A DNA stretch of 64,000 nt. Source: Eledone cirrhosa (lineage: Eukaryota). A program made the position numbers and the translations under genes. Each line of letters opens with the position of its first letter. The first letter of the stretch is position 1. This document shows positions 4,874 to 60,190 of the stretch, one piece after another. Under the pieces are notes generated by a model, which was not told the DNA's origin, ran no database searches, and saw only the letters and a program-made list of their open reading frames with translations. The stretch lies in contig OZ024741.1 in assembly GCA_964016885.1 (NCBI GenBank), positions 114,514,001 through 114,578,000 of the forward strand, in the 5' to 3' direction.

Positions 4874-4913
4874 TAATAACAATAATAATAATAATAATAA
4901 TATTAATAATAAT
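4874..4913. repeat. (AAT)n tract shared as 3' end by the R4/Dong element (+) and Tx1 copy A (-)
   Basis: Direct reading of the sequence. Confidence 0.9.
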
Positions 4914-7798: not shown

Positions 7799-8176
7799 AA
7801 TAATAATAATTGTTTCTACTTTCTAGCACAAGGCCAGCAAATACCCAGTACATTACTGGTACTTTATTTTATCGACCCCGTAAGGATGAAAGGCAAAGTT
7901 AACCTCGGCGGGATTTGAACTCAGTCAGTAAAGGGACGTAACTCTATGCTAGAAAGCATGGCGTCCGATCCTCTACCGATACTGTCAATCCATATAATAA
8001 TAATTGTTTCTACTTTTGGCACAAGGCCAGCAATTATCCCAGTCATTACTGGTACTTCCTTTTATCGACCCCTTAAGGATGAAAGGCGAAGCTAACCCCG
8101 GCAGAATTTGAATTCAGATCGTAAAGAACCGTAATTCTATGCCACAAAGCTCTACCGATACTGCTAATCCACCACC
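7799..8176 (-). mobile_element. Two tandem copies of tRNA-derived SINE family 1
   Basis: A box TGGCAGTATCGG-like, B box GAGTTCAAATCC, core GCCTTTCATCCTTACGGGGTCGATAAAATAAAGTACCAG, 3' GGCCTTGTGC..AAGTAGAAACA(ATT)n. Confidence 0.9.
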
Positions 8177-8194
8177 CTTTTTTTAAATTTTTTA

Positions 8195-9537: not shown

Positions 9538-10787
9538 CTGTAAAATAGATTTAAGAAAAATGTAGGATTTCAGAAAAAAAAAAACAATAAACAAAACAAG
9601 ACAATCACAGGTGTTCATGTAGTAAGGAACGTTTAACTCAGGAAATTTCATATAGGAACAAAGTATTTAACACATGCCTAAGTTAAAATATGCTCCAAAC
9701 CTAGATGCTCATCTGGTTGGGTTTTATCCTGGATTCATTAATGTTAAGTAACTGAGAATACAAGATACCCACTACAGAATTAACCACCATCTGTGGCTGG
9801 TACTTATCTTTTAAAACTGAGTGATTTGGAGCAACGGAAAATGAAATCTACTTCTAAGATAAAACAAATCACTTGGTTCACACTGAACACATAATTTTAT
9901 GACTATGGGCCTAACTCTTTACACTAGATCACACACCTTCACTCCTCCTGCCTTAATTTAATTTAGGAGATGTTCGTAACTCTCTTAAAAGATTTAGATG
10001 CTAAAAATCACATAAATGGTCATGTCCCTCTCCTCCTCATGATGGAGAGTCTGATGGTTGGTGTCAGGTTGTGACGTCAATGAGGTGAAGTATAAACTAA
10101 ACAGAGGTGAATGATCATGTAATCTGATGTTGACCACACGTTGTCTCAGATATGATGGCAGCAGGATGTTGTTGTTTAACCCAGCTCAACTATGATCAAA
10201 GACATAGCTACAACACCCTGACATTATTCAACGTGTCGTTTTTTTTAAAGGCAATAGAGTGGAATTTATGGGAGTTTTAGCTGCTAATTATAGCAGTCCC
10301 AGTGATCACACAGAGGCTCTCCTGCAGGATTTATCAGAAACACACATACTATAATGGGTTGTCTCTGGCACCACTTTATTTTATCAATCCTAAAAGAATG
10401 AGTGACAAAATTGTCTGTAGTGGGATATGAACTGGGAATGTAAAAACCGGAACAATTGTACTCGGACCCCGTACAGCCGAGCTCCTCCGCAAGATCGGAA
10501 CGCCGACGGCCCGTCTGAGGAAGGAGGTTGGGTAGCTGTTGCAGCGGGTGTCACTGGCCATTGTCCGCGGGAATGCTTTTGCTGTCTTGTTCACGGGACG
10601 CAGCACTTCTTCCTCCTTGCCCTAGGCCCAAAGTTCAATCACCCTACCCCTTCACACCTGCCCTCTCTTCTGCGATATCAGACTTCTAGACATCCCCTCC
10701 CCTTATCGTTCTTTTTTCTTTCTTTTTCTCTTTTTTCTCTATATTTCCCTATTCTTTTTTCTTTTGTTTCCTTTTCTTTTTATTATT

Positions 10788-10959
10788 ATGGCCCGAATGA
10801 ATGGGCCTTCTCTGAGTATGTGTCTGTAAATTAAAGGTGGAAAACTGGGAGAGGGCACTTGCCCTGGTGGTCAGGGCCACTGTGGTCTTTTAATGGGCTT
10901 TCTCCACAAATGTCCCTCGGAAGTCTCCCCCCTATTGGGGAATTTTTCTTTGTTATTTT
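10788..10959 (+). mobile_element. 172-bp 3'-terminal fragment of the Tx1 B/D family fused to the 5' end of copy B
   Basis: Near-identical to 16400-16571. Preceded by TTATTATT. Confidence 0.9.
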
Positions 10960-10971
10960 GCAGAGAGAAGA

Positions 10972-12986
10972 TTGTCTCTCTCCCCCCCTTCTTTAAATGT
11001 GTCTCTCTCCCTCCCTTCTCTTTCGCAAGTGACGAAAGAAAAGAAAAGTCTCGTGCAAAGCGTGCAAGATTTCTCCACGACGACGACGACAGCGACGAAA
11101 CAGGTGTGCGGGAAATACGAAAACCCAGTTCATTCGTCTGACGTCAGGAATAATAGCAGTAGCAGCCGTAATAACAACAGCAACAGTGACAATGAAAACA
11201 ACAGTAGCAGCCGCAACAGCATCACCAGCAGCATAAACAACAACAGCATTAGCAGCAGCAACACCAACAACAACCACAGCAACAGCGGCGGAGGCAATAG
11301 TCGTAGTACCTGCAGCAACAACAAAAGTACCAGCAGCTCTGACGACAACAACAACAGCAGCAGCAGCAGAGAGAAACCAATCTCATTTGCAGGTATTGCG
11401 AAAAACTTGGAAACAATCCTCATAACAAATGAGGAATTAGAGGAAGCGAAGAAGATGGTGACAAAGAATGGACACCGAGCAATCTGCAAGGCAGCGGAAA
11501 AATTTTTCGAAACCCAAGAGCACTGTACGGTCACGTACCGTACAGTAAGTACAAAATCCCGTAGGGTGGAAAGAGCCACAGAGGCCCAAATACAAAAAGC
11601 CTTGGGGTCTGTGTGGCAGCGGAAAACGCACATCACCCGAGGCAAAAAATATGCCACCGTAGACGTACTTTTTGCCACACCCCAGGAGGCAAAGGCCCAA
11701 TCAGTAGTGACCCTAAGGAGCGAGGAAATGGTGTTGGTGCCCTCCTACTGCGGGCAAAAAATTGTGAGGGTCAAACTGACCCACGTCCCCCCCGGAATGG
11801 CCCCTTCTTGGCTGGCCGCGTCTGTCCTCGTCGGAATCGAGGACAAAACAACTGTACTGCAAGTACAGAAAAAAGTAAGAGAAGATTGGGTCGGCACCTC
11901 CATTGAGATGCTAATCCAAACCAACCAGGAGTGCATCGAAGCTATCCCGGATGTGATAGACTTCGATAACGGCACTCAACTGCCCATAAGTGTTGAGGGC
12001 AAACGACCGAAATGCTTTCGCTGTGGATCGAAGACTCACCTCAGGGCCTTCTGCAACGAGAAGACCCTGAGAAAGGAGAAAACCCCCCTCCTTCCGAATC
12101 CGGCTCCACGGCTACCAGCAACAGGACAAGCGGCAACCAGGAACGATAGGTCCGTGGCACCCATACCCACGCCACGGAAATCAAAAACAGCAGCAGCAGT
12201 GGAAATATTAACAACAACAATAGCAATACCAAATGCAGCTGCAACAGAGACTCCAGTGCAAACATCACCAACAACAACAAGTGAAAGAGTGGAGCTGGTA
12301 CCCCTCCTCGACCTCACAGAATCAGACATGGAGTGTGAGGTGGGAGAGGGATGGCAAAAGGTCGTAAGAAGGCACAAACGCAGAAGCAGCGCATCGTCGC
12401 CTTTGAAAAGGGAGGAAAGAAATGAGAAAAGGGTAAAGTCTACTGCAAAGAGACCCACAGCAGCAACACCACCAACACCATCACCACCCACACTAGCACC
12501 ACTGGCGACAACCCCACCGCCAACAACACCTTCAACACCACCACCACAAGCACCAACATCGCAAACACAACAACAAAACACACACACACCCAGCAACAAC
12601 GACAAGAAAATAGCAGAACCACACCCCACCCCCAGAAAAACAAATGCACGGCAATAAATACACACAACAAGAAACTAATGACTTACATAATTGAACACAC
12701 AGACATTTCACAACAGGACTACATAATACCAGCACCAATCAAAACGCCAACTAACATAAGACTGCTAAAAATAGCACAGAAACAATACACAAACATTAAA
12801 ACGAAATTCCCCAACGCAGTTGGTGATTTCAGGGACCTAGGAGGAACCATCAATCGAAGAGTATATTCAGACATTCTCTTAGAAGAGCCGACGACCAGCC
12901 GAAGGGACGATTCAACGGTCCCTTCACCAGACGATCAAGTGAAAAGGGATGTAAAAACCATCCCTCCTCTACCAAAAGTACGGTAA
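10972..12986 (+). pseudogene. Tx1 ORF1 (gag-like, CCHC knuckle), 5'-truncated and frameshifted in a (CA)n run at ~12580
   Basis: CFRCGSKTHLRAFC knuckle. The continuous version exists in copy D (26998-29154). B has one extra CA. Confidence 0.9.
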
Positions 12987-13021
12987 GTGGTCTTTCCCAT
13001 CTTTTCCACTCTATTTTAAAC

Positions 13022-16000
13022 ATGACCTCACTCAGAATAGGCAGCATAAATGCGCGTGGCTTGGGGTCGTCATGGAAGCAGGGTCACCTGCTCAACGACC
13101 TCAGGTCACTAAACATAGATGTAGTGGCCATCAGCGAGACCAGAATCTCCGAAGCACGGGCCTTCGCACCGATCTTCGGCGGCTACGATGTGTACGCATC
13201 TCCCAGCCGTCCTGGATCGGGTGGAGGAGTTGCTGTGCTTTTTCGGAGAGGTTTGGATCTCGCCATACGGGCCATCTTCCTGGACCCAGAGGGTAAGCTG
13301 GTGGTGCTGGACGTGACCAGCGGAGACGGGCAAGCTTTCAGGCTAGTGGCCGTCTATGCCCCGACAGGAGCAGGGCGGCCTGATTTCTTCCGGCGTCTGG
13401 AGACCTTTCTTGGAACGTCCCGCTCTTTAGTGTTAGTGGGCGACTGGAACGGGATCTTAGATGCACGCTGGGACTGTGTGGGATTAGCGGATAGGGGTGG
13501 AGGGTGCAAGAGCCTCACCAACCTGCTCAGGCGTTTTGAACTGTCTGACAGGTACCGATTGGATTTCCCGAATGTGCCAATGTGGACTTGGACAAACCGC
13601 ATAGGGTCATCCAGATCATATCTAGATAGAGTATTTTGTAGGGAAATAGATAGGTCTATCATAGGCTGTCCACAATTCAAGATAGTCAGCTACACGGACC
13701 ACAAATTCGTGATCTGTGTGCTTGACTTAGATAGGCTTCATAGACGAGGAACCGGCTACTGGAAGCTAAACGCGTCCTTACCAGCGCGCAAGGCCTACAG
13801 AGACCGGATTAGCGAACTAGTTAAGCGGGCGTTGACGGGGGCCATCGTCAACAACAAGTGGTGGTTTGCTCTGAAAAGAGCGATTAGAATAGAATCGATT
13901 AGGTTTAGTAAGGCTTTAGCAATAGAGAAAAATAGAGCAGAGGGAGAACTAGTTAGAAAATTAGACGAGGCGCTTAGCAAAGGCATTGCGACCGACGTGC
14001 TTGCGGCGAAATTGGCCCTTGACCAATTCTTCAATGCAAAGCACGAAGGCTGCGTTGTCATAGCAAGGGTGCGTGCTCTCAGACACGAGGGGACGAAAGC
14101 CGTTCAATGGGCCCGAGTGGCGGAGGCGCGTCGTGGCAACAAAGCCACGATCCGGTCTTTGGTGGACCACGACGGGCGCATGCTACTCGATCCCGGGCAA
14201 ATGTGTGAAGTTTTTCAGCGACACTTCGCTCAGCTGTTCGGGGGCAGCGGTGGGCCGGGTAGAGGGATGGACTTTAGTGTCTACCTCGACGGACTGCCGC
14301 GGCTCTCGGCCACTGAGGCGAAGTGTTGCGAAAAGCCGATAACAGCCGCTGAAGTAAGGGAGGCAATGACTGGCTGCACAAGGGGTAAATCGCCTGGTTT
14401 GGATGGTCTGCCCTATGAACTTTACGTACAGATGCCAGAATTGTTCGGAGGCCTCTTGGCGGACGTCTACTGCAACTGGCAACAGAACGGGAGAATTCCC
14501 AGTTCTGTGAGCCGAGGAGCGGTGGCACTGCTGAGAAAGGATCCGAACAAGGGGGATAACATAGACAATTTCCGGCCCATAACTCTGCTAAACACAGAGT
14601 TCAAGATTTTGGCCAAGGTGCTAGCAAAGAGGTTGGCGCTTGTCGTTGGTGGTCTGGTGGGAGAGGCGCAAACATGCGCCATTCCCGACAGATCCATCCA
14701 CGACAACCTCCACCTCATGCGATACATCATAGAGAGGGTAGCTAAGGAACCTGGCACGGGTGGGTCCTTGATCAATTTAGATCAGTCGAAAGCTTTCGAT
14801 AGGGTCGACCATCGTTACCTAGCGGCAGTCCTGAGGGCGGCTGGCTTTGGGCCCGTCTTCAGAGGCAGGATCGCTGCCATGCACAGCGACATCTGCTCTG
14901 TGGTGAGAGTGAACGGTCACCTGTCGGAACCGTTCAACATCATGCGCTCGGTCCGCCAAGGATGTCCCCTCTCGTCCCTCTTGTACGTATTGACTCTCGA
15001 GCCATTACTGCACAAACTGGAGACGTTGAGGGGAGTCCCGCGCGAACTAGGATGCGGAAGATCCGTGTCAGCATATGCGGACGATGTCACCGTAGTGGTG
15101 TCGAACGCCAAACACATCGAGGCGATCGGCACTACACTAAGAGAATACGAAGCGGTGACAGGAGCAATGATCAACCAGGAAAAGTCAGTGGGCCTGCAGC
15201 TCGGCACCTGGAGAGGCAGGTCCATGCCGTCCAACAGCGTCGTCGGACACTGGACGGACGGACCGGTTAAATTGCTAGAGTTCTGGTTCGGTCCGGACCT
15301 CCAGACGGACAAAAACTGGGACGAGGTGACGAGCAGGGTGGCTTCTCTCACCCAGAAATGGGCGGAGAGGAAGCTATCCCTGAAAGGTCGAGCGGAGGTG
15401 GCTAACGCGTACATCGCTTCTGTCATCTGCTACCGCCTGACCGTCGTACCTTGTCCTAAGCCTCGCCTGACTGCGCTGGAGCGTTTGCTCTTTCGCTTTT
15501 TGTGGAAGGGACGTGCTCCGATGGTCAGGCGGTCCATCTGTTGTCAACACCCGCTACGTGGAGGGCTGGGCATGCCGTGGCTGATGATGCGCAGGCACGC
15601 GCTCAGGCTACGACATCTCCACCTCTTCCTCGACAGTGATCAGGTGTGGTCGCCGTTTGCTAGGCGCGTATTTCCCCAGCTCGTTTCCTTGACGGAGCTG
15701 CAGTCCTGGGTCAAGCGAAGACCGAGAGGGAGCGCCTGGAGACTGGAATGTCTTCAGGCGCTCACAGCCCTCGACCAATCGGGCAATGTGATCGGTGGAA
15801 ACTCCACCTCGGCGTTCTATAGAGGATTAGTGGAGGGTAAGAGCGACGACGTACTTGGGGAAACTCTAGGCGTCGACGAAAATCAACTAGCCAATCTCTT
15901 CGGAAGAACTTTCGGGCCGGGGCCTATGGACAACTTCCAGAAATCTCTGGCCCGGCAGTGCTACCGAGGAGCCTTGCCAGTTCGGGATAAACTCTACAGG

Positions 16001-16441
16001 CATGGAGGTGCCGTCAGCCGGGCTTGTCCGAGATGCGCGCAGGGCGACGAAACCGTCCTGCACGCACTCGTCCAGTGTCCGAAAATTGCTGACTTGTGGG
16101 TTTATGTCGAACACCTGCTGTCGCGTTTAGGACGGAGCCGGCTATCATCTGAGTCCATCGTGAGGATTGCCCCGCCCTCCTCCTTTAGCCGGGAAGGGCA
16201 GGCAGTTTTTATCTGTCTGGTGGCCATGGCGAAAGAGATAGTATGGTGGACACGTTTGAAAGGGCTGAAGACGAGCACTTACCTCTTCGGTGATGCTCTG
16301 ATTGACTTTTTCAAATTTCATTTGAAAAGGAAAATCAGAGTAGAGAGGGAAGTGCTCTCTTCCCAGCATTTTGTTGAAAGATGGTTGAGAGAAGCAAGAA
16401 TGGCCCGAGTGAATGGGCCTACTCTGAGTATATATCTGTAA
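13022..16441 (+). CDS. Tx1 ORF2: APE endonuclease + reverse transcriptase + C-terminal zinc finger, 1139 aa, uninterrupted
   Basis: SINARG, SET, YAP, GDWN, SYLDR, TDH (endonuclease). KSPGLDG, FRPITLLN, LDQSKAFD, QGCPLS, YADD (RT). CPRC...ETVLH...C (zinc finger). Confidence 0.97.
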   Translation: MTSLRIGSINARGLGSSWKQGHLLNDLRSLNIDVVAISETRISEARAFAPIFGGYDVYASPSRPGSGGGVAVLFRRGLDLAIRAIFLDPEGKLVVLDVTSGDGQAFRLVAVYAPTGAGRPDFFRRLETFLGTSRSLVLVGDWNGILDARWDCVGLADRGGGCKSLTNLLRRFELSDRYRLDFPNVPMWTWTNRIGSSRSYLDRVFCREIDRSIIGCPQFKIVSYTDHKFVICVLDLDRLHRRGTGYWKLNASLPARKAYRDRISELVKRALTGAIVNNKWWFALKRAIRIESIRFSKALAIEKNRAEGELVRKLDEALSKGIATDVLAAKLALDQFFNAKHEGCVVIARVRALRHEGTKAVQWARVAEARRGNKATIRSLVDHDGRMLLDPGQMCEVFQRHFAQLFGGSGGPGRGMDFSVYLDGLPRLSATEAKCCEKPITAAEVREAMTGCTRGKSPGLDGLPYELYVQMPELFGGLLADVYCNWQQNGRIPSSVSRGAVALLRKDPNKGDNIDNFRPITLLNTEFKILAKVLAKRLALVVGGLVGEAQTCAIPDRSIHDNLHLMRYIIERVAKEPGTGGSLINLDQSKAFDRVDHRYLAAVLRAAGFGPVFRGRIAAMHSDICSVVRVNGHLSEPFNIMRSVRQGCPLSSLLYVLTLEPLLHKLETLRGVPRELGCGRSVSAYADDVTVVVSNAKHIEAIGTTLREYEAVTGAMINQEKSVGLQLGTWRGRSMPSNSVVGHWTDGPVKLLEFWFGPDLQTDKNWDEVTSRVASLTQKWAERKLSLKGRAEVANAYIASVICYRLTVVPCPKPRLTALERLLFRFLWKGRAPMVRRSICCQHPLRGGLGMPWLMMRRHALRLRHLHLFLDSDQVWSPFARRVFPQLVSLTELQSWVKRRPRGSAWRLECLQALTALDQSGNVIGGNSTSAFYRGLVEGKSDDVLGETLGVDENQLANLFGRTFGPGPMDNFQKSLARQCYRGALPVRDKLYRHGGAVSRACPRCAQGDETVLHALVQCPKIADLWVYVEHLLSRLGRSRLSSESIVRIAPPSSFSREGQAVFICLVAMAKEIVWWTRLKGLKTSTYLFGDALIDFFKFHLKRKIRVEREVLSSQHFVERWLREARMARVNGPTLSIYL

Positions 16442-16938
16442 ATTAAAGGTGGAAAACTGGGAGAGGGCACTTGCCTTGGTGGTCAGGGTCACTGTGGCCT
16501 TTTACTGGGCTTTCTCCACAAATGTCCCTCCGAAGTCTCCCCCCTATTGGGGAATTTTTCATTGTTATTTTCATTGTTATTTTTTGTTACATCCTCTGTT
16601 TTTGTTTTTTACACGCAGAAATGCCCATTTGTACCGTCCTGCATTGTCCTGCACTGTCCTTAATGTCTACTTTATGTAAACCCTTGTGGTTAATAAAGAA
16701 ATCATTATTATCATTATTATTATTATTGACGAAAGTGGATGTACGTTTTTTGAAGCTCCGTGAGTAAGCAATTTTTTGAGGATTAATTCTGGAGAATTGT
16801 TTATTTTTTTGTACCGCTGAAGCATTATAAGACATTCATTTGTATCCTGTGAAGGAATAATTCATAATATTTGGGCCTTTTGGCCCAAATATTTCAACTT
16901 TATTTTGGAAAAATAATAATTTTTTTCCTCAAAAAAAC

Positions 16939-18855
16939 ATGGCGGAGCCACGCCCCCTAGAGGCAGGTCTGCTGTCGTGCAACGGCGACTTGAGCGTTGA
17001 GAGGAGAGGTGGGGCGAGGAGCGCCACCAGCACGAGTGTGAGCAGCGACAGTGCCAGCACCAACGGGCCGAGCGGCGCGGAAGGTGGTAACAGCGACAAC
17101 ACCAACACCAACAAGCCGAACAGCGTAGAAGGTGGTAATAGCGAGAGCACCAACAAAACGAACAGCACAGAGAGTAATAGTAGCGACAGCAGCAGCACCA
17201 ACAAGGCCAACAGCACAGAGGGTAACCACGACACAGGGGAGAACAACAACAGCAATAGCAGCAGCAACACCAACAAGAACAACAACAGTGACAACACCAA
17301 CAAGAACACCTTCGCTGCTGTGGCAGCGGCTAAAAGGAGACCATGCTACAGCATCGACTTAACCAACAGAGAGGAAAAGTTGGCCCAGGCCTGGAAAATC
17401 ATAAATCAAGAGCAGACGTGACCTGGGCAAACTTAACTGTCCCGGCAGAAGCCATTGAGGCAGTGGAAAAAAGAACGGTGCATTTCAGATGCATCTCAGT
17501 AGAGACAAAGAGGGCAGCGATAATCGCCCAAGCTGATATAGAAGCCGCACTGAAATACATCAGAGAGGACACAGACTTCATAGAGAGGGGCAGGCAATAC
17601 GGCACCGTTTCGGTGCTGTTCAAGTCTGAAGCCCTCGCTGTGAAGCATTCAATGACCCCTTGCAAAACCAGCAAGGTCATAATGTACCCCTCCCACATGG
17701 GAAAACGAATAGCACGTGTGCGCATTCCCAGGATTCCACCAGGACTTGATATGTGGTGGCTCCTGGGTTGCGTAATCGTGGAAGGAACGGATACAGTCCC
17801 GGTAGAGGAAACGAGAACTGCCAGGGACGACTGGTCCGGGGTTGATCTGGAGATACTGCTCCAAATCAGACCCGAAAACGTAAAAGCAATCCCGGACCAC
17901 ATCCGCCTCCAAAACGGGAGGGTGTTGCATATAATGACTGAGGGCAAAAGGCCGCATTGTTTCCTTTGTGGGGAAACGACACACTTGCGAGCCTTCTGCC
18001 CTCAACTGCCGAAAAGCGCAAGGGGTCGAAAGATTCCACTGCTGGCGACGCCGGGACAAGGACCACCAGCAACACCGTCAACAATGGAACCACCAAAATT
18101 GCACACCCAGGGGGGAAACGAGGAAAGCTCTCCCATTCCCCCTCCCCCCCCCCAAAATACACACACGAACAAGAACATAAACACTCACTCAGACACAAAC
18201 ACGCTCACAGCCACAGACCCCTCATCCTCCAGCAGTGAAGATGAGGGAAAACCAAAGTCCCCCAAAATACAAAAAACAAAACACAAAAAAAAGAAATCCA
18301 CAAAGCACAAACACCCCCACAAAAAAAAATACACACACGACCCACACAAACATTTTCCCCACAGCATCACCAACACAACCACCAAAATCCCCCAAACGCA
18401 AACAAGCTAAACAGACACAAGAACAAATAGACACACAAACATCAGAAACTACAGACACCACACCCACAACAAACGCAGACACAATAGAAACAACACTAAC
18501 AAAGCTATCACCACCACAATCACACGAACAAATAAAACCCGAGCAACAAAACATTAAAAACTTCGTGCTTGCCAGAAGGGCCAACAAGGAATTGATGGCC
18601 CATGTAGCACGAAGCACAAACATCGAAAAAGAGGGGGAAACATTTGAAGCGAGCACATTTCGCGTACCAGATAATTTGCTTCTGATGCGAATGTCGCTCG
18701 CTTCATACAAAGAAATTCGAAAGAGCTTTCCTCGGGATGTGGGAACCCCGAACGTAAAACCCACTTCAAGACTATTAAAGGGGTTCCCAAAAGAAACCCC
18801 ACAAACCATGGAGGTCGAACCACCCGACCTTCACAAGACCCCGGAAGGTAAGTAA
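16939..18855 (+). pseudogene. Copy C ORF1, two frameshifts
   Basis: Three overlapping frames. N/S-rich N-terminus, CFLCGETTHLRAFC knuckle, conserved C-terminal domain. Confidence 0.88.
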
Positions 18856-18884
18856 ACCTTTCCTCTCCCATTCATCCTGCCAGC

Positions 18885-21800
18885 ATGGCCATAAGAGTAG
18901 GAAGTTTAAATTTTCGTGGCCTGGGGTCGCCCTGGAAGCAAGGTCACTTACTCAACGACCTCAGGTCACTAGGAATGGATGTAATTGCCATCAGCGAGAC
19001 CAGAATTTCCGACACACGCGCACTGGCGCCGATTTTCGACGATTATCAGATCTTTGCATCTGTTAGTCGGCCGGGAATGGGAGGTGGAGTGGCTGTGCTG
19101 TTTAGGAAATGTCTGGATCTCGAGGTAAGGTCAATCTTCCGGGATCCTGACGGAAAGTTGGTGGTCCTGGACGTGAGCAATAGCGAAAGTGGTGCCTTTA
19201 GACTGGTGGCCGTCTACGCCCCTACTGGGGCCGGTCGGCCGGACTTCTTTAGGCGCCTGGAAAACTTTCTGCTTACGTCTCGCCCTTTACTGTTAATAGG
19301 GGATTGGAATGGCATCTTAGAAGCACGCTGGGATTGTGTGGGAGTATCTGATAGGAGCGGGGGGTGCAAAAGCCTCAAGTACCTGATCAGCCAGTTTCAA
19401 CTGTCTGACAGGTACCGACTAGATTTCCCTAATGCGCCAGTATGGACCTGGACCAATCGCATAGGGTCATCTAGATCGTACATAGATAGGATTTTCATTA
19501 GGAAAAGAGATAGAAATAGTGTAGGATGTCCACATTTTAAAACGGTTGCCTATTCAGATCACAAGCTTGTGATCTGTATGGTCGACCTAGATAAGACACG
19601 TAGGTTAGGACCTAGCTACTGGAAGCTAAACATGTCGTTTCCGGCACGTAAAGCTTACAGGGACCGGGTCAACAACTTAGTTAAGCAAAAGTTGACATGG
19701 GGGGGGGTTGTCAACAACAGGTGGTGGGGGGGCTCTCAAAAGAGAGATTAGAGCAACCTCGATAGGATTTAGCAAAGAAGTAGCAATAGAGAAAAATAGA
19801 AAGGAGGAGGGGCTGATAGCTAAGTTAGACGAGGCTATTTGTAGTGGCATTGCAACAGACGTGCTAGCGGCGAGAATGGCACTAGACCATTTCTTCAATG
19901 CGAAATACGAAGGTTGCATTGTCAGAGCTAAGGCGCGTGCTCTGAGGAACGAGGGAACCAAAGCTGCCCGATGGGCTCGCTTTGCAGAGACGCAGCGTGG
20001 AAATAAAACCACAATTCGGTCTTTGACGGATCGAGATGGACACGAACTGAGCGATTCCAAGCAGATGTGTGAGGCCTTTCGCCAGCACTTTGCTCGATTG
20101 TTCGGGAGGATGGGTGAGTCGGAGACGGCGGCGGACTTCAGTCCCTACCTCGACGGCTTGCCACGCCTCTCGACGGCCGACGCTGAGCGCTGCGAAGAGC
20201 CGATAACATCAGTCGAAATTCAGGACGCCCTTGTCGGCTGCTCGAGTCGCAAGTCACCCGGTTTGGATGGTCTGCCCTACGAGCTTTACGTAAATATGCC
20301 AGACTTGTTCTCCGATCTCCTCGAAGCGCTCTACTGCAACTGGCAGCAGAACGGGAGCATTCCCAGTTCTGTGAGCCGTGGCGTAGTGACGCTGATAAGG
20401 AAAGACGAGAACAAGAGGGACACACTAGATAATTTCAGGCCCATAACCCTGCTCAACACAGAGTTTAAGATTTTGGCCAAGGTGTTAGCGAAAAGGTTGG
20501 CGCTTGTAGTCAAAGATTTGGTTGGGGAGGCGCAAACTTGCACAATCCCGACCAGGTCCATATACGACAACCTCCACCTCATGCGATACATCATAGAGAG
20601 GGTTGGGTGCAAACCTGGCTTCGGTGGGGCTCTGATCAATTTAGATCAATCGAAAGCATTCGATAGGGTCGACCATCGGTACTTGGAGGCTGTCCTCGAG
20701 GCGGCTGGCTTCGGCCCCGTCTTCAGAAGCTGGATCGCTGCAATGTACAGCGGCATCTGCTCGGTGGTCAAAGTTAATGGCCACCTCTCGGAACCGTTTC
20801 AGATCTCTCGATCGGTCCGTCAAGGGTGCCCTCTCTCCTCACTTCTGTACGTATTGACTCTTGAGCCTCTACTGCGGAAGCTGGAGTTGTTGCAGGGCAT
20901 CCCACTCGAACCGGGACGTAGAAAGGCTGCGTCCGCTTATGCGGACGACATCACCGTGATGGTGTCGGACACCTCGGAAATCGAGGTGATCCGCACCCAT
21001 TTGGAGGAATATGAAAGGTTGACGGGAGCAAAACTTAACCCGGAAAAGTCGGTGGGCTTGCAGCTCGGCACCTGGAGAGGCAAGTCCATGCCGTCCAACA
21101 GCGTCGTTGGGCGCTGGACAGACGGACCGGTAAAGTTGCTCGGGGTTTGGTTCGGACCAGACCTCCAGGTGGATAAGAATTGGGACGAGGTGACGAGCAG
21201 GATAGCCAACCTCACCCAGAAATGGGCTGAGAGAAAGCTATCACTGAAAGGGCGGGCGGAGGTGGCGAACGCGTACATCGCGTCCATCATCTACTACCGC
21301 CTGACCGTCGTGCCTTGCCCCCGTCCACGCCTCGCCAATTTGGAACTGCTCCTTTTCAAATTTTTGTGGAGGGGACGGGTCCCGTTGGTGAGGCGGTCCA
21401 TCTGCTGCCAGCACCCGCTTCGTGGAGGGCTGGGCATGCCGTGGCTAATGATGCGCAGACATGCGCTGAGGCTGCGACATCTCCAGATATTTTGCCTAAA
21501 CGGTGAACAGGTGTGGTCGCCGTTTGTTAGACGGGCCTTTCCGCAGCTCATCTCTTTGACTGAGCTGCAGTCCTGGGTCAAGAAGAGACCGAGACTGGGC
21601 GACTGGCATCTGGAATGTTGCCAGGCGCTCACTGTACTCTGCAAGGTGGGCAATGCGGTCAGTGGAACTTCCACTCAAGATTTCTATAGAGGATTAGTGG
21701 AGGGCAAGTACGATGACGTACTAGGAGAGGCTCTAGGCGTCAACGAAGTAGAACTGACCAGTATGTTCCGGAGGACTTTCGAGCCGGGGACGATGGATAA

Positions 21801-22308
21801 CTTCCAGAAATCCCTCGCTTGGCAGTGCTACCGGGGGGCGCTGCCGGTTCGGGATGAACTCTACAGGCACGGAAGTGCTGTCAGACGAACCTGCCCGAGA
21901 TGCGCGCAGAGCGACGAAACCGTTCTGCACGCACTCGTCCAGTGTCCGTGCATTGCTGACTTGTGGGGTTATGTCGAACAGCTATTGTCGCGTGTAGAAC
22001 GGATCCGGCTATCGTCCGAGTCCATAGTGAAGATTGACCCGCCGCCTTCTTTTCGTCAGGAAGGGCAGGCAATTTTCCTCTGCCTGGTGGCAGTAGCGAA
22101 AGAGGTTGCATGGTGGACCAAGTTGAAAGGACTGAAGACAGACACTTTTCTCTTCGGCCAATCCCTCATCAACTTCTTCAAGTTTCACTTGGAAAGGAAG
22201 GTGAGGGTGGAGAGAGAAGTGCTGCCCCCCAGTACATTTACTGAAAGGTGGGTGAATGTGGCGAGAATGGCCCGCGTGAGTGGGCCTACTCTGATCATGC
22301 GCCTGTAG
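18885..22308 (+). pseudogene. Copy C ORF2 (EN-RT-zf), frameshifted at the G-runs near 19700-19735
   Basis: The 288-aa EN ORF and the 866-aa RT ORF (YADD) overlap at homopolymer runs, so this may be an assembly error. Confidence 0.92.
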
Positions 22309-22575
22309 GCTGGTGAATTCGAGAAGGAGAGGGGTGCCGTTCCCGGGTGCCATAGGAGCGTCGGGTGGCTCAGGACTGGTGGGGTGCTTGAGTCAACTCT
22401 GGGTGGTGATCCCTCTTATTGGGGAACTTTCATTGTTGTATTTTTATTGTTATTTTGTTTTTTGTTATTTATACTTACTCGATCTCTATGTAAACCCCCA
22501 CTGTCCCTGTCTATTGTGTTGTCCCCTATATGTCGGCCCTTGTGGCCAATAAATGAAATCATTATTATTATTATT

Positions 22576-22772
22576 AACATTTTCATTTTCATTGTTTATA
22601 TATATATGTTTCTATGTCTTTTTCTTTTCTTATATAAATAATAAAAATCTTTACACGCACAAAACCCACATCGTACCGTCCTGTACCGTCCTGTACCGTC
22701 CTGTGCCGTCTGTAATATTTTTCTTGATGTCAGCTCTTGTGGCCAATAAAGAAATCATCATTATTATTATTA
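22576..22772 (+). mobile_element. 3'-UTR-only Tx1 fragment with its own AATAAA and (ATT)n tail
   Basis: TTTACACGCA.AAA, (GTACCGTCCT)x3 and CTTGTGGCCAATAAAGAAATC match the 3' UTR of B. Confidence 0.85.
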
Positions 22773-22778
22773 CTGTAA

Positions 22779-22951
22779 GGCAGTATCGGTAGAGGGTTGG
22801 AAGCCATGCTTTCTAGCATAGTTACGCCCCTTTACGGTCTGAGTTCAAATCCCGTCGAGGTTAACTTTGCCTTTCATCCTTATGGGGTCGATAAAATAAA
22901 GTACCAGTAATGTACTGGGTAATTGCTGGCCTTGTGCCAAAAGTAGAAACA
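22779..22951 (+). mobile_element. SINE family 1 with a ~19-bp target-site duplication
   Basis: ATTATTATTATTACTGTAA at 22760-22778 and at 22952-22970. Confidence 0.9.
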
Positions 22952-23059
22952 ATTATTATTATTACTGTAAATAAAAAAAAATTGTTTCAATAGAAAAAAA
23001 AAAATAGTAGCGAAATATAAAATGATTGAAAGGTAGTTTATCCTGTAACTACTCTGCCT

Positions 23060-23275
23060 ATCTACTAGAGGTACAAGGACAGCAATTTTTTCGGTGGGAG
23101 GGAACTGTCGACTAAATCGACTCCAGTGCATTACTGGTGCTTTATTTTATCGACTCCGAAAGGATGAAAGGCAAAGCTAACCACGACGGGATTTGAAATC
23201 AGAACGTAAAGGGCCGTAATTCTATGCCGCGAACCATGTGTCCGACGCTCTACCGATACTGCTAATCTACCGCCC
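23060..23275 (-). mobile_element. SINE family 1 variant
   Basis: Same A/B boxes and central core. The head abuts copy D's tail. Confidence 0.85.
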
Positions 23276-23311
<36 letters not shown>

Positions 23312-23559
23312 TTTCTTTATTAACCACAAGGGTTTACATAAAGTAGACATTAAGGACAGTGCAGGACAATACAGTACGGTACAAATGGGCATTTCTGCGT
23401 GTAAAAAACAAAAACAGAGGATGTAACAAAAAATAACAACGAAAAATTCCCCAATAGGGGGGAGACTTCGGAGGGACATTTGTGGAGAAAGCCCAGTAAA
23501 AGGCCACAGTGACCCTGACCACCAAGGCAAGTGCCCTCTCCCAGTTTTCCACCTTTAAT

Positions 23560-26500
23560 TTACAGATATATACTCAGAGTAGGCCCATTCACTCGGGCCA
23601 TTCTTGCTTCTCTCACCCATCTTTCAACAAAATGCTGGGAAGTGAGCACTTCCCTCTCTACTCTGATTTCCCTTTTCAAATGAAATTTGAAAAAGTCAAT
23701 CAGAGCATCACCGAAGAGGTAAGTGCTCGTCTTCAGCCCTTTCAAACATGTCCACCATACTATCTCTTTCGCCATGGCCACCAGACAGATAAAAACAGCC
23801 TGCCCTTCCAAGCTAAAGGAGGAGGGCGGGGCAATCCTCACGATGGACTCAGATGATAGCCGGATCCGTCCTAAACGCGACAGCAGGTGTTCGACATAAA
23901 CCCACAAGTCAACAATGCTGGACGAGTGCGTGCAGGACGGTTTCGTCGCCCTGCGCGCATCTCGGACATGCCCGGCTGACGGCACCTCCATACCTGTAGA
24001 GTTTATCCCGAACTGGCAAGGCTCCTCCGTAGCACTGCCAGGCCAGAGATTTCTGGAAGTTGTCCATAGGCCCTGGCCCGAAAGTTCTTCCGAAGAGATT
24101 GGCTAGTTGATTTTCGTCGACGCCTAGAGTTTCCCCAAGTACGTCGTCGCTCTTCCCCTCCACTAATCCTCTATAGAACGCCGAGGTGGAGTTTCCACCG
24201 ATCACATTACCCGATTGGTCGAGGGCTGCGAGCGCCTGAAGACATTCCAGTCTCCAGGCGCTCCCTCTCGGTCTTCGCTTGACTCTGGACTGCAGCTCCG
24301 TCAAGGAAACGAGCTGGGGAAATACGTGTCTAGCAAACGGCGACCACACCTGATCACCGTCGAGGAAGAGGTGGAGATGTCGTAGCCTGAGCGCGTGCCT
24401 GCGCATCATCAGCCACGGCATGCCCAGCCCTCCACGTAGCGGGTGTTGACAACAGATGGACCGCCTGACCATCGGAGCGCGTCCCTTCCACAAAAAACGA
24501 AAGAGCAAACGCTCCAGCGCAGTCAGGCGAGGCTTAGGACAAGGTACGACGGTCAGGCGGTAGCAGATGACAGACGCGATGTACGCGTTAGCCACCTCCG
24601 CTCGACCTTTCAGGGATAGCTTCTCCTCCGCCCATTTCTAGGTGAGAGAAGCCACCCTGCTCGTCACCTCGTCCCAGTTTTTGTCCGTCTGGAGGTCCGG
24701 ACCGAACCAGACCCCTAGCAATTTAACCGGTCCGTCCGTCCAGCGTCCGACGACACTGTTGGACGGCATGGACCTGCCTCTCCAGGTGCCGAGCTGCAGG
24801 CCCACTGACTTTTCCTGGTTGATCATTGCTCCTGTCACCGCTTCGTATTCTCTTAGTGTAGTGCCGATCGCCTCGATGTGTTTGGCGTTCGACACCACTA
24901 CGGTGACATCGTCCGCATATGCTGACACGGATCTTCCGCATCCTAGTTCGCGCGGGATGCCCCTCAACGTCTCCAGTTTATGCAGTAATGGCTCGAGAGT
25001 CAATACGTACAAGAGGGACGAGAGGGGACATCCTTGGCGGACCGAGCGCATGATGTTGAACGGTTCCGACAGGTGACCGTTCACTCTCACCACAGAGCAG
25101 ATGTCGCTGTGCATGGCAGCGATCCAGCCTCTGAAGACGGGTCCAAAGCCAGCCGCCCTCAGGACTGCCGCTAGGTAACGATGGTCGACCCTATCGAAAG
25201 CTTTCTGACTGATCTAAATTGATCAAGGACCCACCCGTGCCAGGTTCCCTAGCTACCCTCTCTATGATGTATCGCATGAGGTGGAGGTTGTCGTGGATGG
25301 ATCTGTCGGGAATGGCGCATGTCTGCGCCTCTCCCACCAGACCACCAACGACAAGCGCCAACCTCTTTGCTAGCACCTTCGCCCAAATCTTGAACTCTGT
25401 GTTTAGCAGAGTTATGGGCCTGAAATTATCTATGTTATCCCCCTTGTTCGGATCCTTTCTCAGCAGTGCCACCGCTCCTCGGCTCACAGAACTGGGAATT
25501 CTCCCGTTTTGTTGCCAGTTGCAGTAGACGTCCGCCAAGAGGCCTCCGAACAAGTCTGGCATCTGTACGTAAAGTTCATAGGGCAGACCATCCAAACCAG
25601 GCGATTTACCCCTTGTGCAGCCAGTCATTGCCTCCCTTACTTCAGCGGCTGTTATCAGCTTTTCGCAACACTTCGCCTCAGTGGCCGAGAGCCGCGGCAG
25701 TCCGTCGAGGTAGACACTAAAGTCCATCCCTCTACCCGGCCCACCGCTGCCCCCGAACAGCTGAGCGAAGTGTCGCTGAAAAGCTTCACACATTTGCCCG
25801 GGATCGAGTAGCATGCGTCCGTCGTGGTCCACCAAAGAGCGGATCGTGGCTTTGTTGCCACGACGCGCCTCCGCCACTCGGGCCCATTGAACGGCTTTCG
25901 TCCCCTCGTGTCTGAGAGCACGCACCCTTGCTCTGACAACGCAGCCTTCGTGCTTTGCATTGAAGAATTGGTCAAGGGCCAATTTCGCCGCAAGCACGTC
26001 GGTCGCAATGCCTTTGCTAAGCGCCTCGTCTAATTTTCTAACTAGTTCTCCCTCTGCTCTATTTTTCTCTATTGCTAAAGCCTTACTAAACCTAATGGAT
26101 TCTATTCTAATCGCTCTTTTCAGAGCAAACCACCACTTGTTGTTGACGATGGCCCCCGTCAACGCCCGCTTAACTAGTTCGCTAATCCGGTCTCTGTAGG
26201 CCTTGCGCGCTGGTAAGGACGCGTTTAGCTTCCAGTAGCCGGGTCCTCGTCTATGAAGCCTATCTAAGTCAAGCACACAGATCACGAATTTGTGGTCCGT
26301 GTAGCTGACTATCTTGAATTGTGGACAGCCTATGCTAGACCTATCTATTTCCCTACAAAATACTCTATCTAGATATGATCTGGATGACCCTATGCAATTT
26401 GTCCAAGTCCACATTGGCACATTCGGGAAATCCAATCGGTACCTGTCAGACAGTTCAAAACGCCTGAGCAGGTTGGTGAGGCTCTTGCACCCTCCACCCC

Positions 26501-26962
26501 TATCCGCTAAACCCACTCAGTCCCAGCGTGCATCTAAGATCCCGTTCCAGTCGCCCACTAACACTAAGGTCCAAGAAAGGTCTCCAGACGCCGGAAGAAA
26601 TCATGCCGCTCTGCTCCTGTCGGGGCATAGACGGCCACTAGCCTGAAAGCTTGCCCGTCTCCGCTGGTCACGTCCAGCACCACCAGCTTACCCTCTGGGT
26701 CCAGGAAGATGGCCCGTATGGCGAGATCCAAACCTCTCCGAAAAAGCACAGCAACTCCTCCACCCGATCCAGGACGGCTGGGAGATGCGTACACATCGTA
26801 GCCACCGAAGATCGGTGCGAAGGCCCGTGCGTCGGAGATTCTGGTCTCGCTGATGGCCACTACATCTATGTTTAGTGAGCTGAGGTCGTTGAGCAGGTGA
26901 CCCTGCTTCCATGACGACCCCAAGCCACGCGCATTTATGCTGCCTATTCTGAGTGAGGTCAT
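23560..26962 (-). pseudogene. Copy D ORF2, several frameshifts and stops
   Basis: Five ORF pieces (132, 441, 158, 228 and 143 aa) collinear with B ORF2. Confidence 0.93.
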
Positions 26963-26997
26963 GTTTAAAATAGAGTGGAAAAGATGGGAAAGACCAC

Positions 26998-29154
26998 TTA
27001 CCGTACTTTTGGTAGAGGAGGGATGGTTTTTACATCCCTTTTCACTTGATCGTCTGGTGAAGGGACCGTTGAATCGTCCCTTCGGCTGATCGTCGGCTCT
27101 TCTATGATTATGTCCGAATATACTCTTCGATTGATAGTTCCTCCTAGGTCCCTGAAATCACCAACTACGTTGGGGAATTTCGTTTTAATGTTTGTGTATT
27201 GTTTCTGTGCTATTTTTAGCAGTCTTACGTTAGTTGGTGTTTTGATTGGTGCTGGTATTATGTAGTCGTGTTGTGAAATGTCTGCGTGTTCAATTATGTA
27301 AGTCATTAGTTTCTTGTTGTGTGTATTTATTGCTGTGCATTTGTTTTTCTGGGGGTGGGGTGTGGTTCTGCTATTTTCTTGTCGTTGTTGCTGGGTGTGT
27401 GTGTTTTGTTGTTGTGTTTGCGATGTTGGTGCTTGTGGTGGTGGTGTTGAAGGTGTTGTTGGCGGTGGGGTTGTCGCCGGTGGTGATGGTGGTGCTAGTG
27501 TGGGTGGTGATGGTGTTGGTGGTGTTGCTGATGTGAGTCTCTTTGCAGTAGACTCTACCCGTTTCTCATTTCTTTCCTCCCTTTTCAAAGGCGACGATGC
27601 GCTGCTTCTGCTTTTGTGCCTTCTTACGACCTTTTGCCATCCCTCTCCCACCTCACACTCCATGTCTGATTCTGTGAGGTCGGGGAGGGGTACCAGCTCC
27701 ACTCTTTCACTTGTTGTTGTTGGTGATGTTTGCACTGGAGTCTCTGTTGCAGCTGCATTTGGTATTGCTGTTGTTGTTGTTAATATTTCCACTGCTGCTG
27801 CTGTTTTTGATTTCCGTGGCGTGTGTATGGGTGCCACGGACCTATCGTTCCTGGTTGCCGCTTGTCCTGTTGCTGGTAGCCGTGGAGCCGGTTTCGGAAG
27901 AAGGGGGGTTTTCTCCTTTCTCAGGGTCTTCTCGTTGCAGAAGGCCCTGAGGTGAGTCTTCGATCCACAGCGAAAGCATTTCGGGCGTTTGCCCTCGACA
28001 CTTATGGGCAGTTGAGTGCCGTTATCGAAGTCTATCACATCCGGGATAGCTTCGATGCACTCCTGGTTGGTTTGGATTAGCATCTCAATGGAGGTGCCGA
28101 CCCAATCTTCTCTTACTTTTTTCTGTACTTGCAGTACAGTTGTTTTGTCCTCGATTCCGACGAGGACAGACGCGGCCAGCCAAGAAGCGGCCATCCCTGG
28201 GGGTACGTGGGTCAGTTTGACCCTTACAATTTTTTGCCCGCAGTAGGAGGGCACCAACACAATTTCCTCGCTCCTTAGGGTCACTACTGATTGAGCATTT
28301 GCCTCCTGGGGTGTGGCAAAAAGTACGTCTACGGTGGCATATTTTTTGCCTCGGGTGATGTGCGTTTTCCGCTGCCACACAGACCCCAAGGCTTTTTGTA
28401 TTTGAGCCTCTGTGGCTCTTTCCACCCTACGGGATTTTGTACTTACTGTACGATACGTGACCGCACAGTGCTGTTGGGTTTCGAAAAAATTTTCCGCTGC
28501 CTTGCAGATTGCTCGGTGTCCAGTCTTTGTTACCATCTTCTTCGCTTCCTCTAATTCCTCATTTGTTATGAGGATTGTTTCCAGGTTTTTCGCAATACCT
28601 GCAAATGAGATTGGTTTTTCTTTGCTTCTGTTGTTGTTGTTGTCGTCAGAGCTGCTGTTACTTTTGTTGTTGCTGCAGGTACTACGACTACTGCCTCCGC
28701 CGCTGTTGCTGTGGTTGTTGTTGGTGTTGCTGCTGCTAATGCTGTTGTTGTTTATGCTGCTGGTGATGCTGTTGCGGCTGCTACTGTTGTTTTCATTGTC
28801 ACTGTTGCTGTTGTTATTACGGCTGCTACTGCTATTATTCCTGACGTCAGACGAATGAAATGGGTTTTCGTATTTCCCGCACACCTGTTTCGCCGTTGTC
28901 GTGGAGAAATCTTGTACGCTTTGCACGAGACTTTTCTTTTCTGTCTTCGCTTGCGAAAGAGAAGGGAGGGAGAGAGACACATTTAAAGAAGGGAGGGAGA
29001 GAGACACACTTAAAGAAGGGAGGGAGAGAGACAATCTTCTCTCTGCCGTAGTGATGATTGAGGAAGAAGAAGACGGAATGAGTGGGAGTGACCTATGAAA
29101 CTTCTTTTTCGTAGCCATGTTGTTTTTTTTGTTTAAAATAAATATTGGGCACAA
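26998..29154 (-). CDS. Copy D ORF1, uninterrupted (probable start MATKK at ~29118)
   Basis: 718-aa ORF: N/S-rich region, central folded region, CX2CX4HX4C knuckle, P/T-rich linker, C-terminal domain. Confidence 0.92.
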   Translation of the reverse strand: MCPIFILNKKNNMATKKKFHRSLPLIPSSSSSIITTAERRLSLSLPSLSVSLSLPSLNVSLSLPSLSQAKTEKKSLVQSVQDFSTTTAKQVCGKYENPFHSSDVRNNSSSSRNNNSNSDNENNSSSRNSITSSINNNSISSSNTNNNHSNSGGGSSRSTCSNNKSNSSSDDNNNNRSKEKPISFAGIAKNLETILITNEELEEAKKMVTKTGHRAICKAAENFFETQQHCAVTYRTVSTKSRRVERATEAQIQKALGSVWQRKTHITRGKKYATVDVLFATPQEANAQSVVTLRSEEIVLVPSYCGQKIVRVKLTHVPPGMAASWLAASVLVGIEDKTTVLQVQKKVREDWVGTSIEMLIQTNQECIEAIPDVIDFDNGTQLPISVEGKRPKCFRCGSKTHLRAFCNEKTLRKEKTPLLPKPAPRLPATGQAATRNDRSVAPIHTPRKSKTAAAVEILTTTTAIPNAAATETPVQTSPTTTSERVELVPLPDLTESDMECEVGEGWQKVVRRHKSRSSASSPLKREERNEKRVESTAKRLTSATPPTPSPPTLAPPSPPATTPPPTTPSTPPPQAPTSQTQQQNTHTQQQRQENSRTTPHPQKNKCTAINTHNKKLMTYIIEHADISQHDYIIPAPIKTPTNVRLLKIAQKQYTNIKTKFPNVVGDFRDLGGTINRRVYSDIIIEEPTISRRDDSTVPSPDDQVKRDVKTIPPLPKVR

Positions 29155-29334
29155 AACCCCAATAAGCAGTTATTTAACCCCGAAGGGCCAAATAACGGGC
29201 AGAAAGACCCCTCTCACGAGGAGGAGGGTGTTTTTGTCTACAAGTTCGTTAAAGTTTTAAACAATTTACAATTGTTATAGCGTTAAAAATTTACAATACC
29301 TTACAGAGCCGAGCCTCCGTCAACCATAGCATTC

Positions 29335-30333
29335 AATAATAATAATAATAATAATAGCAATGTTTTCTTTATTGACCACAATAGATTTTCATAAAAATAC
29401 ATTAAAGACAGCACAGGACGGTACAATGTAGGTTTCTGCGTGTAAAAATGAGTATAAACCAAAACCAAAGGATGAAAAAAAAATAGAAACATTAGAAAAT
29501 TCCTCATTTGGACGGAGACTTCCGAGGGTTAGTCGTGGACAAAGTCCACAAAAGCCAGTTTCCTTCATCGCCAGGGTAAGTGCCCGCTCCCGGGTATCCT
29601 CCCTCATTCTACAGGCACACGCTCAGAGCAGGCCCATTCACTCGGGCCATTCTCGCCTCTTTCACCCACCTTACAACAAATTGCTTTGAAGACAGCACTT
29701 CCTTCTCTAACCTGATTTTCCTCTTCAAGTGAAACCTGAAGAAGTTAATCAGTGGGTCGCCGAAAAGGAAATTGTCCGTTTTCAGCCCTTTCGGACGTGT
29801 ACACCATATGACCTCTTTCATCATAGTTACCAGACAGATAAAAACAGCCTTCCCTTCCTGGCTAAAGAAGGGCGGCGGGGCATTAGTGACAGTCGGATCC
29901 GCCCACATGTGACAGCTGGTGTTCGAGATAAACCCACAAGCCAGCGATACTCGGAAACTGGACGAGCGTGAGCACGACAGTTTCGTCGCCCTGAGCACAT
30001 CTCGGATATGACCGGCTGACGGCACTTCCATGCCTGTAGAGCTTATCTCGGACCGGTAACGCTCTCCGGTTGCACTGCTAGGCCAGGGATTTCTGGATGT
30101 TATCTATATGTCCTGGACCGAAAGTCCCGCGGAAGAGAATGACTAGTTGATTTTCATCGACGCCCAGAGTTTTCCCAGAGTTTTCCCAAGAACGTCGTCT
30201 CTTTTACCCATCACTAACCATCTAAAGAACGCCAAGGTGGTGTTTCTACCGATCGTAGTGCCCGATTGGCTGAGGGCTGTGAGCGCCTGAAGACATTTTA
30301 GCTTCTACGTGCTCCCCCTATATCTCCGCTTGA
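29335..30333 (-). mobile_element. 5'-truncated, decayed Tx1 copy E
   Basis: ORF2 C-terminus (FFRFHLKRKIRLE..RWVKEARMARVNGP), 3' UTR, AATAAA and (ATT)n tail. Confidence 0.9.
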
Positions 30334-31334: not shown

Positions 31335-32015
31335 TGCTACAATAGGAACAAGGCCAGCAATTTCAGGGGAGGGGAAAGCCGATTAAATCGTCCCCAGTGC
31401 ATTACTGGTACTTTATTTTATCGACCTTTAAGGATGAAAGGCAAAGTTAACCTCGACGGGATTTGAACTCGGAACGTACAGGGCCGTTACCGTATGCCGC
31501 AAAGCATGTTGTCCGACGCTCTACCGATGCTGTCAATTCACTGCCCTATATAATAATATAATAATGGTTTCTTATATAGGCACAAGGCCAGCAATTTTGG
31601 GGGAGGGGAAAGTCGATTAAATCGACCCAGTGCGTGACTGGTACTTTATTTTATCGATCCCGTAAGGATGAAAGGCAAAGTTAACCGCGACAGGATTTGA
31701 ACACGGAACGTACAGGGCCGTTACCGTATGCCACAAAGCATGTTGTCCGACGTTCTACCGCTGCTGTCAATTCACTGCCCTATATAATAATATAATTGTT
31801 TCTACTTTTAGCACAAGGCCAACAATTATCCAGTGTATTACTGGTACTTTATTTTATCGACCTCATAAGGATCAAAGGCAAAGTTAACCTCGACGGGATT
31901 TGAACTCAGACCGTAAAGGGACATAGCTATGCTGGAACGCATGGCGTCCGAACCTCTACCGATACTGCCAATTCACGCGTCCGACGCTCTACCGATGCTG
32001 TCAATTCACTGCTCT
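31335..32015 (-). mobile_element. Tandem cluster of three SINE family 1 copies plus a head fragment
   Basis: Repeated core and head, separated by TATATAATAAT linkers. Confidence 0.9.

Positions 32016-60150: not shown

Positions 60151-60190
<40 letters not shown>

Follow-up and report, generated by a model that had tools for sequence, protein, structure and literature searches.

Why should several families of long interspersed nuclear elements (LINEs) and a short interspersed nuclear element (SINE) stand head to tail, in one orientation, with runs of ATT at their joins? The question is raised by a 64,000-nucleotide (nt) stretch of the Eledone cirrhosa genome (GenBank assembly GCA_964016885.1, contig OZ024741.1, positions 114,514,001 to 114,578,000 of the forward strand), here called the window and numbered from its first letter. 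We propose, at a probability of roughly 0.72, that families of the L1/Tx1 group and a SINE sharing their 3' hairpin came to sit in this way through target-primed reverse transcription at (ATT)n, which would duplicate the target and leave an ATT site on both sides of each copy.

Three multi-element (ATT)n chains, each in a single orientation, had been described in an original prediction made from the letters of the window, and all three were found in the sequence in the order given, one on the plus strand and two on the minus strand. The plus-strand chain runs from B (to 16727) through (ATT)5, C (16728-22576), a further (ATT)5, U (22577-22772) and (ATT)4 to a SINE (22780-22964). On the minus strand, E (30333-29335) is followed by (ATT)7, D (29334-23276), (ATT)11 and a SINE of a second, older subfamily (23062-23275, by sequence comparison), which lies directly after D's tail and whose own tail has decayed; elsewhere, a SINE (7991-7799) is followed by (ATT)4 and A (7798-4881). 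This last join is real, but A lies outside the interval 10788-30333 to which the prediction had assigned it. A, C and D were correctly said to start at ATT|G; in our measurement the ATG of open reading frame (ORF) 1 lies 211-260 nt further in. The description of A as full-length did not survive, since it is a 2.9-kb, internally deleted copy that is complete only at its ends.

Alignments, trees and domain searches define the members of the chains as follows. B (10961-16727, plus strand) lacks about 310 nt of its 5' end and has the tail ATC(ATT)2ATC(ATT)5; its ORF1 carries a CCHC knuckle and one frameshift, and its intact ORF2 (13022-16441, 1139 amino acids) encodes an apurinic/apyrimidinic-type (APE) endonuclease, a reverse transcriptase (RT) and a zf-RVT domain. 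C is full-length and frameshifted, has (ATT)5 on either side and belongs to a family other than B's, from which its ORF2 DNA differs by 23.5%. D is full-length, with ORF1 open, ORF2 frameshifted, (ATT)7 upstream and (ATT)11 downstream; B and D belong to a single family, with 123 substitutions in 5711 columns (2.2%). A is an old copy of the L1/Tx1 group and sister to C, and its 5' flank is the (ATT)4 of the SINE above it. E is 5'-truncated, older and sister to B/D, and U, a 196-nt piece of the 3' untranslated region (UTR) from yet another family, carries the hairpin, AATAAA and (ATT)4 and is 73-77% identical to the 3' termini of B, C, D and E. Together with F, a full-length element outside the chains, C, E, U and A represent families other than B/D, with ORF2 DNA 19-36% apart where comparable. 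Upstream of B, the plus-strand chain extends to a 5'-truncated, older piece of the B/D family (10788-10959, 172 nt; end of ORF2 and start of the 3'UTR, 94% identical to 16400-16571), several alleles of which are common or in the majority in reads. Before this piece, and heading the chain, is the 3' piece of a restriction-like-endonuclease retroelement (10450-10789, plus strand, recognized by translation), whose T-rich end closes in a 10-nt ATT-phase repeat. We take this piece to be CRE/HERO-like; it is a third element type in the ATT niche.

Do these elements prefer ATT, in the orientation of the chains? An ATT-phase repeat of at least 9 nt, that is (ATT)3 or longer, lies directly upstream of five of the seven ATT-tailed or ATT-family LINE pieces (A, C, D, U and 10788-10959), against a background of 120 among 128,000 strand positions (p = 1.5e-14). 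This count is not blind for A and D because their 5' ends were set partly by where the repeat stops; the junction of C was checked on reads. Since two of the four truncated copies also have upstream (ATT)n, the repeat is more than a piece of the element's own 5' end. The window holds 26 ATT-phase runs of at least 9 nt. Half of them (13, in 12 distinct tails) come after the 3' hairpin of a LINE or SINE, and sorting by hand assigns to retroelement tails 8 of the 10 that reach 12 nt, the automatic tail label of the runs at 61163 and 437 having been corrected to non-tails; tails are thus the main local target. One reading would lower the count: the piece 10788-10959 ends, by homology, about where U begins, and the two could come from a single element that B and C interrupted. 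We think this improbable, as the first piece is 94% like B and U only 76%; if it were so, U would be no independent insertion and the count would be 4/6 rather than 5/7.

The check proposed with the original prediction, whether 5' flanks are enriched for (ATT)n, was run on family C in public reads and did not refute the prediction. The test region (16719-16800) comprised 9 nt of repeat and the first 73 nt of C and drew on 4 of 24 public runs (X1, X4, X6 and X24), which carry three organism labels; X24 holds raw reads of restriction-site-associated DNA sequencing and covers few loci, and depth is not copy number in these data. In X1 (11 contigs), the summed depth stays at 6280 between 16722 and 16745 and shows no step at 16728; words across the junction have a depth of 2100-2108 compared with 1900-1954 for interior words. 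Junction words are as deep as interior words, and so no sizeable share of C 5' ends in this run lacks the repeat; one low-depth contig departs at 16720 into ATT-rich sequence. In X4 (502 contigs, 36 of which fit only partly), no other letter appears in 16719-16727 at a threshold of 1%, the three upstream loose ends listed are all ATT-rich and, among those listed, mutually unlike, and such ends turn imperfect and diverge within about 10 nt. The one contig of X6 runs through to 16719, as do 38 of 40 raw reads of X24. In these four runs the 5' end of family C is almost always preceded by ATT repeats. Both this result and the five of seven junctions in the window lie above the share of 20% of one flank type by which a LINE has been called target-specific (PMC4494074; works cited by accession are cited from excerpts). 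The preference for (ATT)n in one orientation, as predicted, is borne out for several families. We also considered a co-amplified B-C unit and rejected it, as the upstream loose ends differ among contigs.

The ATT|G phase at the 5' end of C (16728-16760) is constant in all four runs, and the constant G could be a copied cap or the product of homology-guided joining. The same constancy would be expected if the 5' (ATT)n belonged to the elements themselves, their transcripts starting in or including the upstream repeat, in which case enrichment at 5' ends would be uninformative on targets; homology-guided 5' joining would give the same phase. We hold this to be very unlikely, given that the truncated pieces 10788-10959 and U also follow (ATT)n, that the SINE duplications described below place ATTAT in the pre-insertion site, and that the upstream loose ends are imperfect and soon divergent. 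In the same data X4 covers the C 5' end (16728-17050) tens of times more deeply than X1 does, while the B 3'UTR is deeper in X1; the families seem to have expanded differently between organisms, as far as depth, which is not copy number, can indicate.

What, then, is the source of the repeat at each join? The original prediction held that the families bring their own (ATT)n tail. A repeat made by an element lies between the copies of its target-site duplication, and a targeted repeat does not (PMC2887409). In the main SINE, target-site duplications, 8-19 nt long, mark 8 of 11 copies in the window; a single mismatch is present in two of them, and in two the element is preceded by 6 and 12 additional letters. 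Chance matches of at least 9 nt arose in 0.05% of 2000 random pairs. All eight duplications open with ATTAT immediately where the body ends, so that the tail lies inside the duplication, and a short target yields a short 'tail'. The SINE at 22760-22970 (plus strand; body 22780-22951) has, by a duplication search, a 19-nt duplication (22760-22778 and 22952-22970) beginning within U's tail and extending 7 nt beyond it, from which it follows that the SINE inserted after U and into a LINE tail. Head-to-tail SINE-SINE tandems lie at 7799-8177, 31342-31976, 43797-44404 and 45542-45761, several with duplications starting in the tail of the preceding copy. F served as an internal control: this full-length sister family (47249-52855, plus strand; element 47263-52842), 26-29% from B, C and D, has a 13-nt duplication (47249-47261 and 52843-52855) that begins with TATC and is found as a 13-mer only at 47249 and 52843, with no ATT flank or repeated tail. 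F apparently lies inside another SINE type, both flanks being weakly like 35520-35680.

To judge from these duplications, LINE and SINE tails look mostly like duplicated target rather than repeat supplied by the element. The opposite account, in which the LINE RNA, bearing or producing a long (ATT)n tail, deposits targets at places that had none, each new element entering the tail of the upstream one, would explain why D has a 34-nt tail and a 22-nt 5' run, and why ATTAT follows the body in all 11 SINE copies, including the 3 without a duplication; the order of E-D and of U-SINE fits it too, and RTE elements are known to make microsatellites between their duplications (PMC2887409). In RTE the repeat is new and lies between the duplications, whereas here it lies inside them, though both have short-repeat 3' ends (PMC2887409). 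The position of the tail in 8/8 SINE duplications and the absence of a repeated tail in F make that account unlikely, as does the relative youth of B and of the SINE above A discussed below. The excess length of D's tail is what an insertion away from the middle of E's tail would give, and longer LINE tails in general can be explained by a split, partly duplicated target; the claim of own tails was not upheld on these grounds. An RNA-templated share of LINE tails is possible because in LINEs the duplication is hidden within the repeat.

Several points weigh against insertion at (ATT)n with target duplication as the source of the chains. The hidden duplication in LINEs is one of them; others are the 3 of 11 SINE copies without a duplication and the lack of (ATT)3 at the 5' junctions of B and E, the latter also without a duplication. 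A 5' (ATT)n is missing from B, E and F, and with F included the ATT-flanked count is 5/8. The read test covered the 5' end of one family, C, and its upstream flank as far as the repeat.

The order in which the elements arrived bears on how the chains grew. Dating used trees and read variants, as private-substitution counts are unusable for C and F, in which lineage change is mixed with decay. Tree branches are 0.19 for E, 0.015 for D, 0.20 for A, 0.062 for C and 0.003-0.007 for B. E is older than D, as entry into a tail predicts, and the U-SINE pair agrees. A, by contrast with its sister C on the branches given, is old and sits below a SINE (7799-7991, minus strand, with an 11-nt duplication starting ATTAT) that is only 4.3% from the window majority; the next SINE up (7994-8177, minus strand), at the head of this SINE-SINE-A chain, is older at 13.9%. 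The younger SINE likely slipped in between the two, at A's head. C differs at no fewer than 7-8 of about 320 5' positions at which X1 and X6 contigs share another letter, and B is likely younger than the downstream C, the two estimates using different regions and references. The predicted entry of each element into the upstream tail is seen, then, for E-D and U-SINE, and not for B-C and SINE-A, where the upstream member looks younger. These two inversions of age suggest that the arrays are likely not in chronological order and that chains grow from within.

Chains could also form after insertion, if copies recombined or were tandemly duplicated at the shared repeat, or if insertions in harmless repeats survived. 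Later change does occur: the join of 10959 to B has lost its junction and contains no (ATT)n, so that later deletion has reshaped this chain. As a general explanation it is highly improbable, for chain neighbours differ in family and age (19-24% apart in sequence), the duplications mark separate insertions, and survival alone could hardly bring a family some 2% old to almost complete ATT flanking.

The 3' ends suggest how insertion at (ATT)n might proceed. In B, C, D, U and E, AATAAA lies 6-7 nt before the first tail ATT, and poly(A) is absent. A CTTGT-looped hairpin at the 3' end is common to A, B, C, U, F and the SINE, with a folding term of only -1.19 kcal/mol; both arms of its stem differ among B/D, C and the SINE, and at 3-4 bp the stem is weak. 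With this weak stem-loop and the ATTAT site in common, the SINE and the LINEs are at most a candidate SINE-LINE pair, and other LINEs could be the partner. In the scheme that we favor, the APE endonuclease would nick the AAT strand, and RNA reading past AATAAA into the ATT units of the donor locus would pair a few AUU units with the freed ...ATAAT-3' end; copying that starts from this pairing would insert no poly(A). A second nick 8-19 nt away would duplicate the target; duplications are seen for the SINE and F and are consistent with C, D and U. One site would become two of the same orientation, and later copies of any family with a like preference could enter any junction, on the head or the tail side. 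Because each insertion would double the ATT site, mixed chains would grow from within, and seeding is likely to occur mainly via duplication of the target rather than via repeat supplied by the element.

Is the preference set by cutting or by priming? In an alignment to the swapped loop of the L1 chimeras LTX and LR1, the endonuclease loop is RIGSSR in both B and C and CIGSSR in D, while F has RSGTSR, a single contrast that is in step with the target. A lax, AT-rich nickase of which only those nicks that pair with AUU units of the RNA are extended would alter the first step alone, and chains would still form. Such a preference in priming would suit SINE targets as small as ATTAT (0.2% of positions), the end of F at TATC with a matching duplication and no repeat, and the missing poly(A) after AATAAA; it sits less well with the likeness of the loop in B, C and nearly D and its difference in F, with the in-phase ATT of at least 9 nt flanking family C in reads, and with the view that target choice is mainly set by the endonuclease (PMC4494074). 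We regard it as a possibility, on balance a doubtful one. Rather unlikely, in our estimate, is that target choice is partly inherited from the donor flank, an RNA of no fixed tail reading past AATAAA into the donor's repeat and priming on the same repeat elsewhere; a nearly unchanged endonuclease loop would then suffice for sister families 26-29% apart to switch from ATT to TATC or back. B, with its intact ORF2, and F, with another target and another loop, offer a natural pair on which to separate cutting from RNA-primer pairing in target choice.

Microsatellite-targeting LINEs of the Tx1 clade have been described, namely Kibi at (TC)n, Koshi at (TTC)n and crocodilian Tx1 at (TTCC)n/(TTTC)n (PMC4494074). 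A to E resemble them in being APE-RT LINEs with the repeat on both flanks and in having related families that share a repeat target (PMC4494074), and differ from Kibi and Koshi in the unit, ATT rather than (TC)n or (TTC)n, and in the cephalopod-type host; the comparison is one of layout. Tandem SINEU-3 copies of crocodilians are attributed to sequential insertion around a duplicated target and were likely moved by Tx1-Mar (PMC4494074). As in the window, tandems sandwich the duplicated target and the SINE shares a Tx1 target, but that target is a Mariner transposon and not a microsatellite (PMC4494074). Human CLIQUEs are mixed chains of Alu, L1 and SVA with an orientation bias, an arrangement explained in that work by duplications and A-rich parts that raise the chance of later insertion (PMC3215922). 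Our three chains and the SINE-SINE tandems at 31342-31976 and 43797-44404 are, like a CLIQUE, unbroken successions of LINEs and SINEs that point the same way and have duplications where they join. The feedback idea is the same, duplications and tails adding endonuclease sites, although CLIQUEs use L1's loose T/A-rich site and poly(A) tails and the chains of the window a triplet repeat with much tighter flanks (PMC3215922). In a related count, 20 same-strand insertions were found in Alu tail regions compared with 10.3 and 17.2 in two comparison columns (PMC3783187).

The feedback principle is therefore known, being in print for human Alu/L1 and crocodilian SINEU, and the ATT unit was not found described for the L1/Tx1 group. 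Excerpts of PMC4640811, PMC3747384, PMC8967140 and PMC4758252 contain no ATT-targeting Tx1, and the literature search as a whole, with Repbase, Dfam and subscription papers outside its scope, so that absence from print is not shown, returned no ATT-targeting Tx1 and no octopus target analysis. An annotation of Octopus vulgaris lists 13 recently active L1-Tx1 and 5 Dong-R4 families with insertion hotspots (PMC13282606), and in the excerpted text and supplement of that work the words 'target' and 'nested' do not occur. On the present reading, ATT would join the repeat units that APE-type L1/Tx1 LINEs use, and retroelement clusters would have a simple cause in a repeat-rich, cephalopod-type genome, in which hotspots have been reported, in the parts cited, with no target mechanism (PMC13282606). 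On the rather unlikely reading in which target choice is partly inherited from the donor flank, and with each duplication doubling the site, LINEs of Tx1 type, the plentiful SINE and the Dong-like element facing the other way would share a self-multiplying ATT/TAA niche that gives rise to transposon hotspots in cephalopods.

The assignment of A to F draws on their coding layout. PF03372, PF00078 and PF13966 were matched on ORF2 of B and C (Pfam), and the best solved-structure match of ORF2 is L1 ORF2p (E = 2.6e-51), as against 2e-21 for R2. ORF1 of B, C, D and F contains a CCHC knuckle of the form CX2CX4HX4C, and Pfam named no ORF1 domain at its cut-off. A separate ORF1 with a CCHC zinc knuckle is a trait of the Tx1 clade. 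The combination of APE, RT, a C-terminal zinc-binding domain and a CCHC ORF1 fits an L1/Tx1-type element. No Tx1-named reference was present among 50 and 43 ORF2 homologs, cluster members or Atlas clusters, and B's ORF2 had two named animal relatives only, a short piece in a protein of Octopus sinensis and a protein of Argonauta hians. A short stretch of an Octopus sinensis tectonic-3-like protein (P0049) is 64% identical to ORF2 and is probably an exonized or mis-annotated LINE piece. Searches for further loci in metagenome contigs confirmed 0 of 14 candidates by protein and gave 0 by tail motif; prokaryote genomes searched by SINE tail gave 0 loci, and in viral contigs 3 loci were returned, with identities of 27-28%. 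Ahead of the ORF1 ATG, C (16840-16940), D (29120-29210, minus strand), A (7540-7630, minus strand) and perhaps F (47400-47480) carry an inverted motif of GGGCC/GGCCC type, possibly a conserved 5'UTR hairpin.

A's tail merges, tail to tail, with the (TAA)n tail of an opposite-facing element at 2431 to about 4902-4913 (plus strand; RVT_1 match and translated ends), a single-ORF element of the type lacking long terminal repeats that we presume, from motif likeness, to be Dong/R4-like. It is internally deleted, the end of its RT being joined to a C-terminal motif, and its RT is nearer R2 (E = 7e-26) than L1 (E = 9e-14). Elements of the Dong/R4 type have a restriction-like endonuclease and a single ORF. 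A to E are not of this type: they have two ORFs and an APE domain, and their sense strand reads ATT; only the neighbor at 2431-4902 looks Dong-like. Dong itself (R4 clade) targets (TAA)n (PMC2887409), and shares a triplet microsatellite with A to E in the opposite orientation, TAA being on the sense strand. Elsewhere in the window, nested tandem duplications of 450 and 282 nt (454-1618) are 89-93% alike, and inverted repeats at 59555-60161 and 53449-54412, of 110-175 nt and about 95% identity, resemble miniature inverted-repeat transposable elements or foldback elements.

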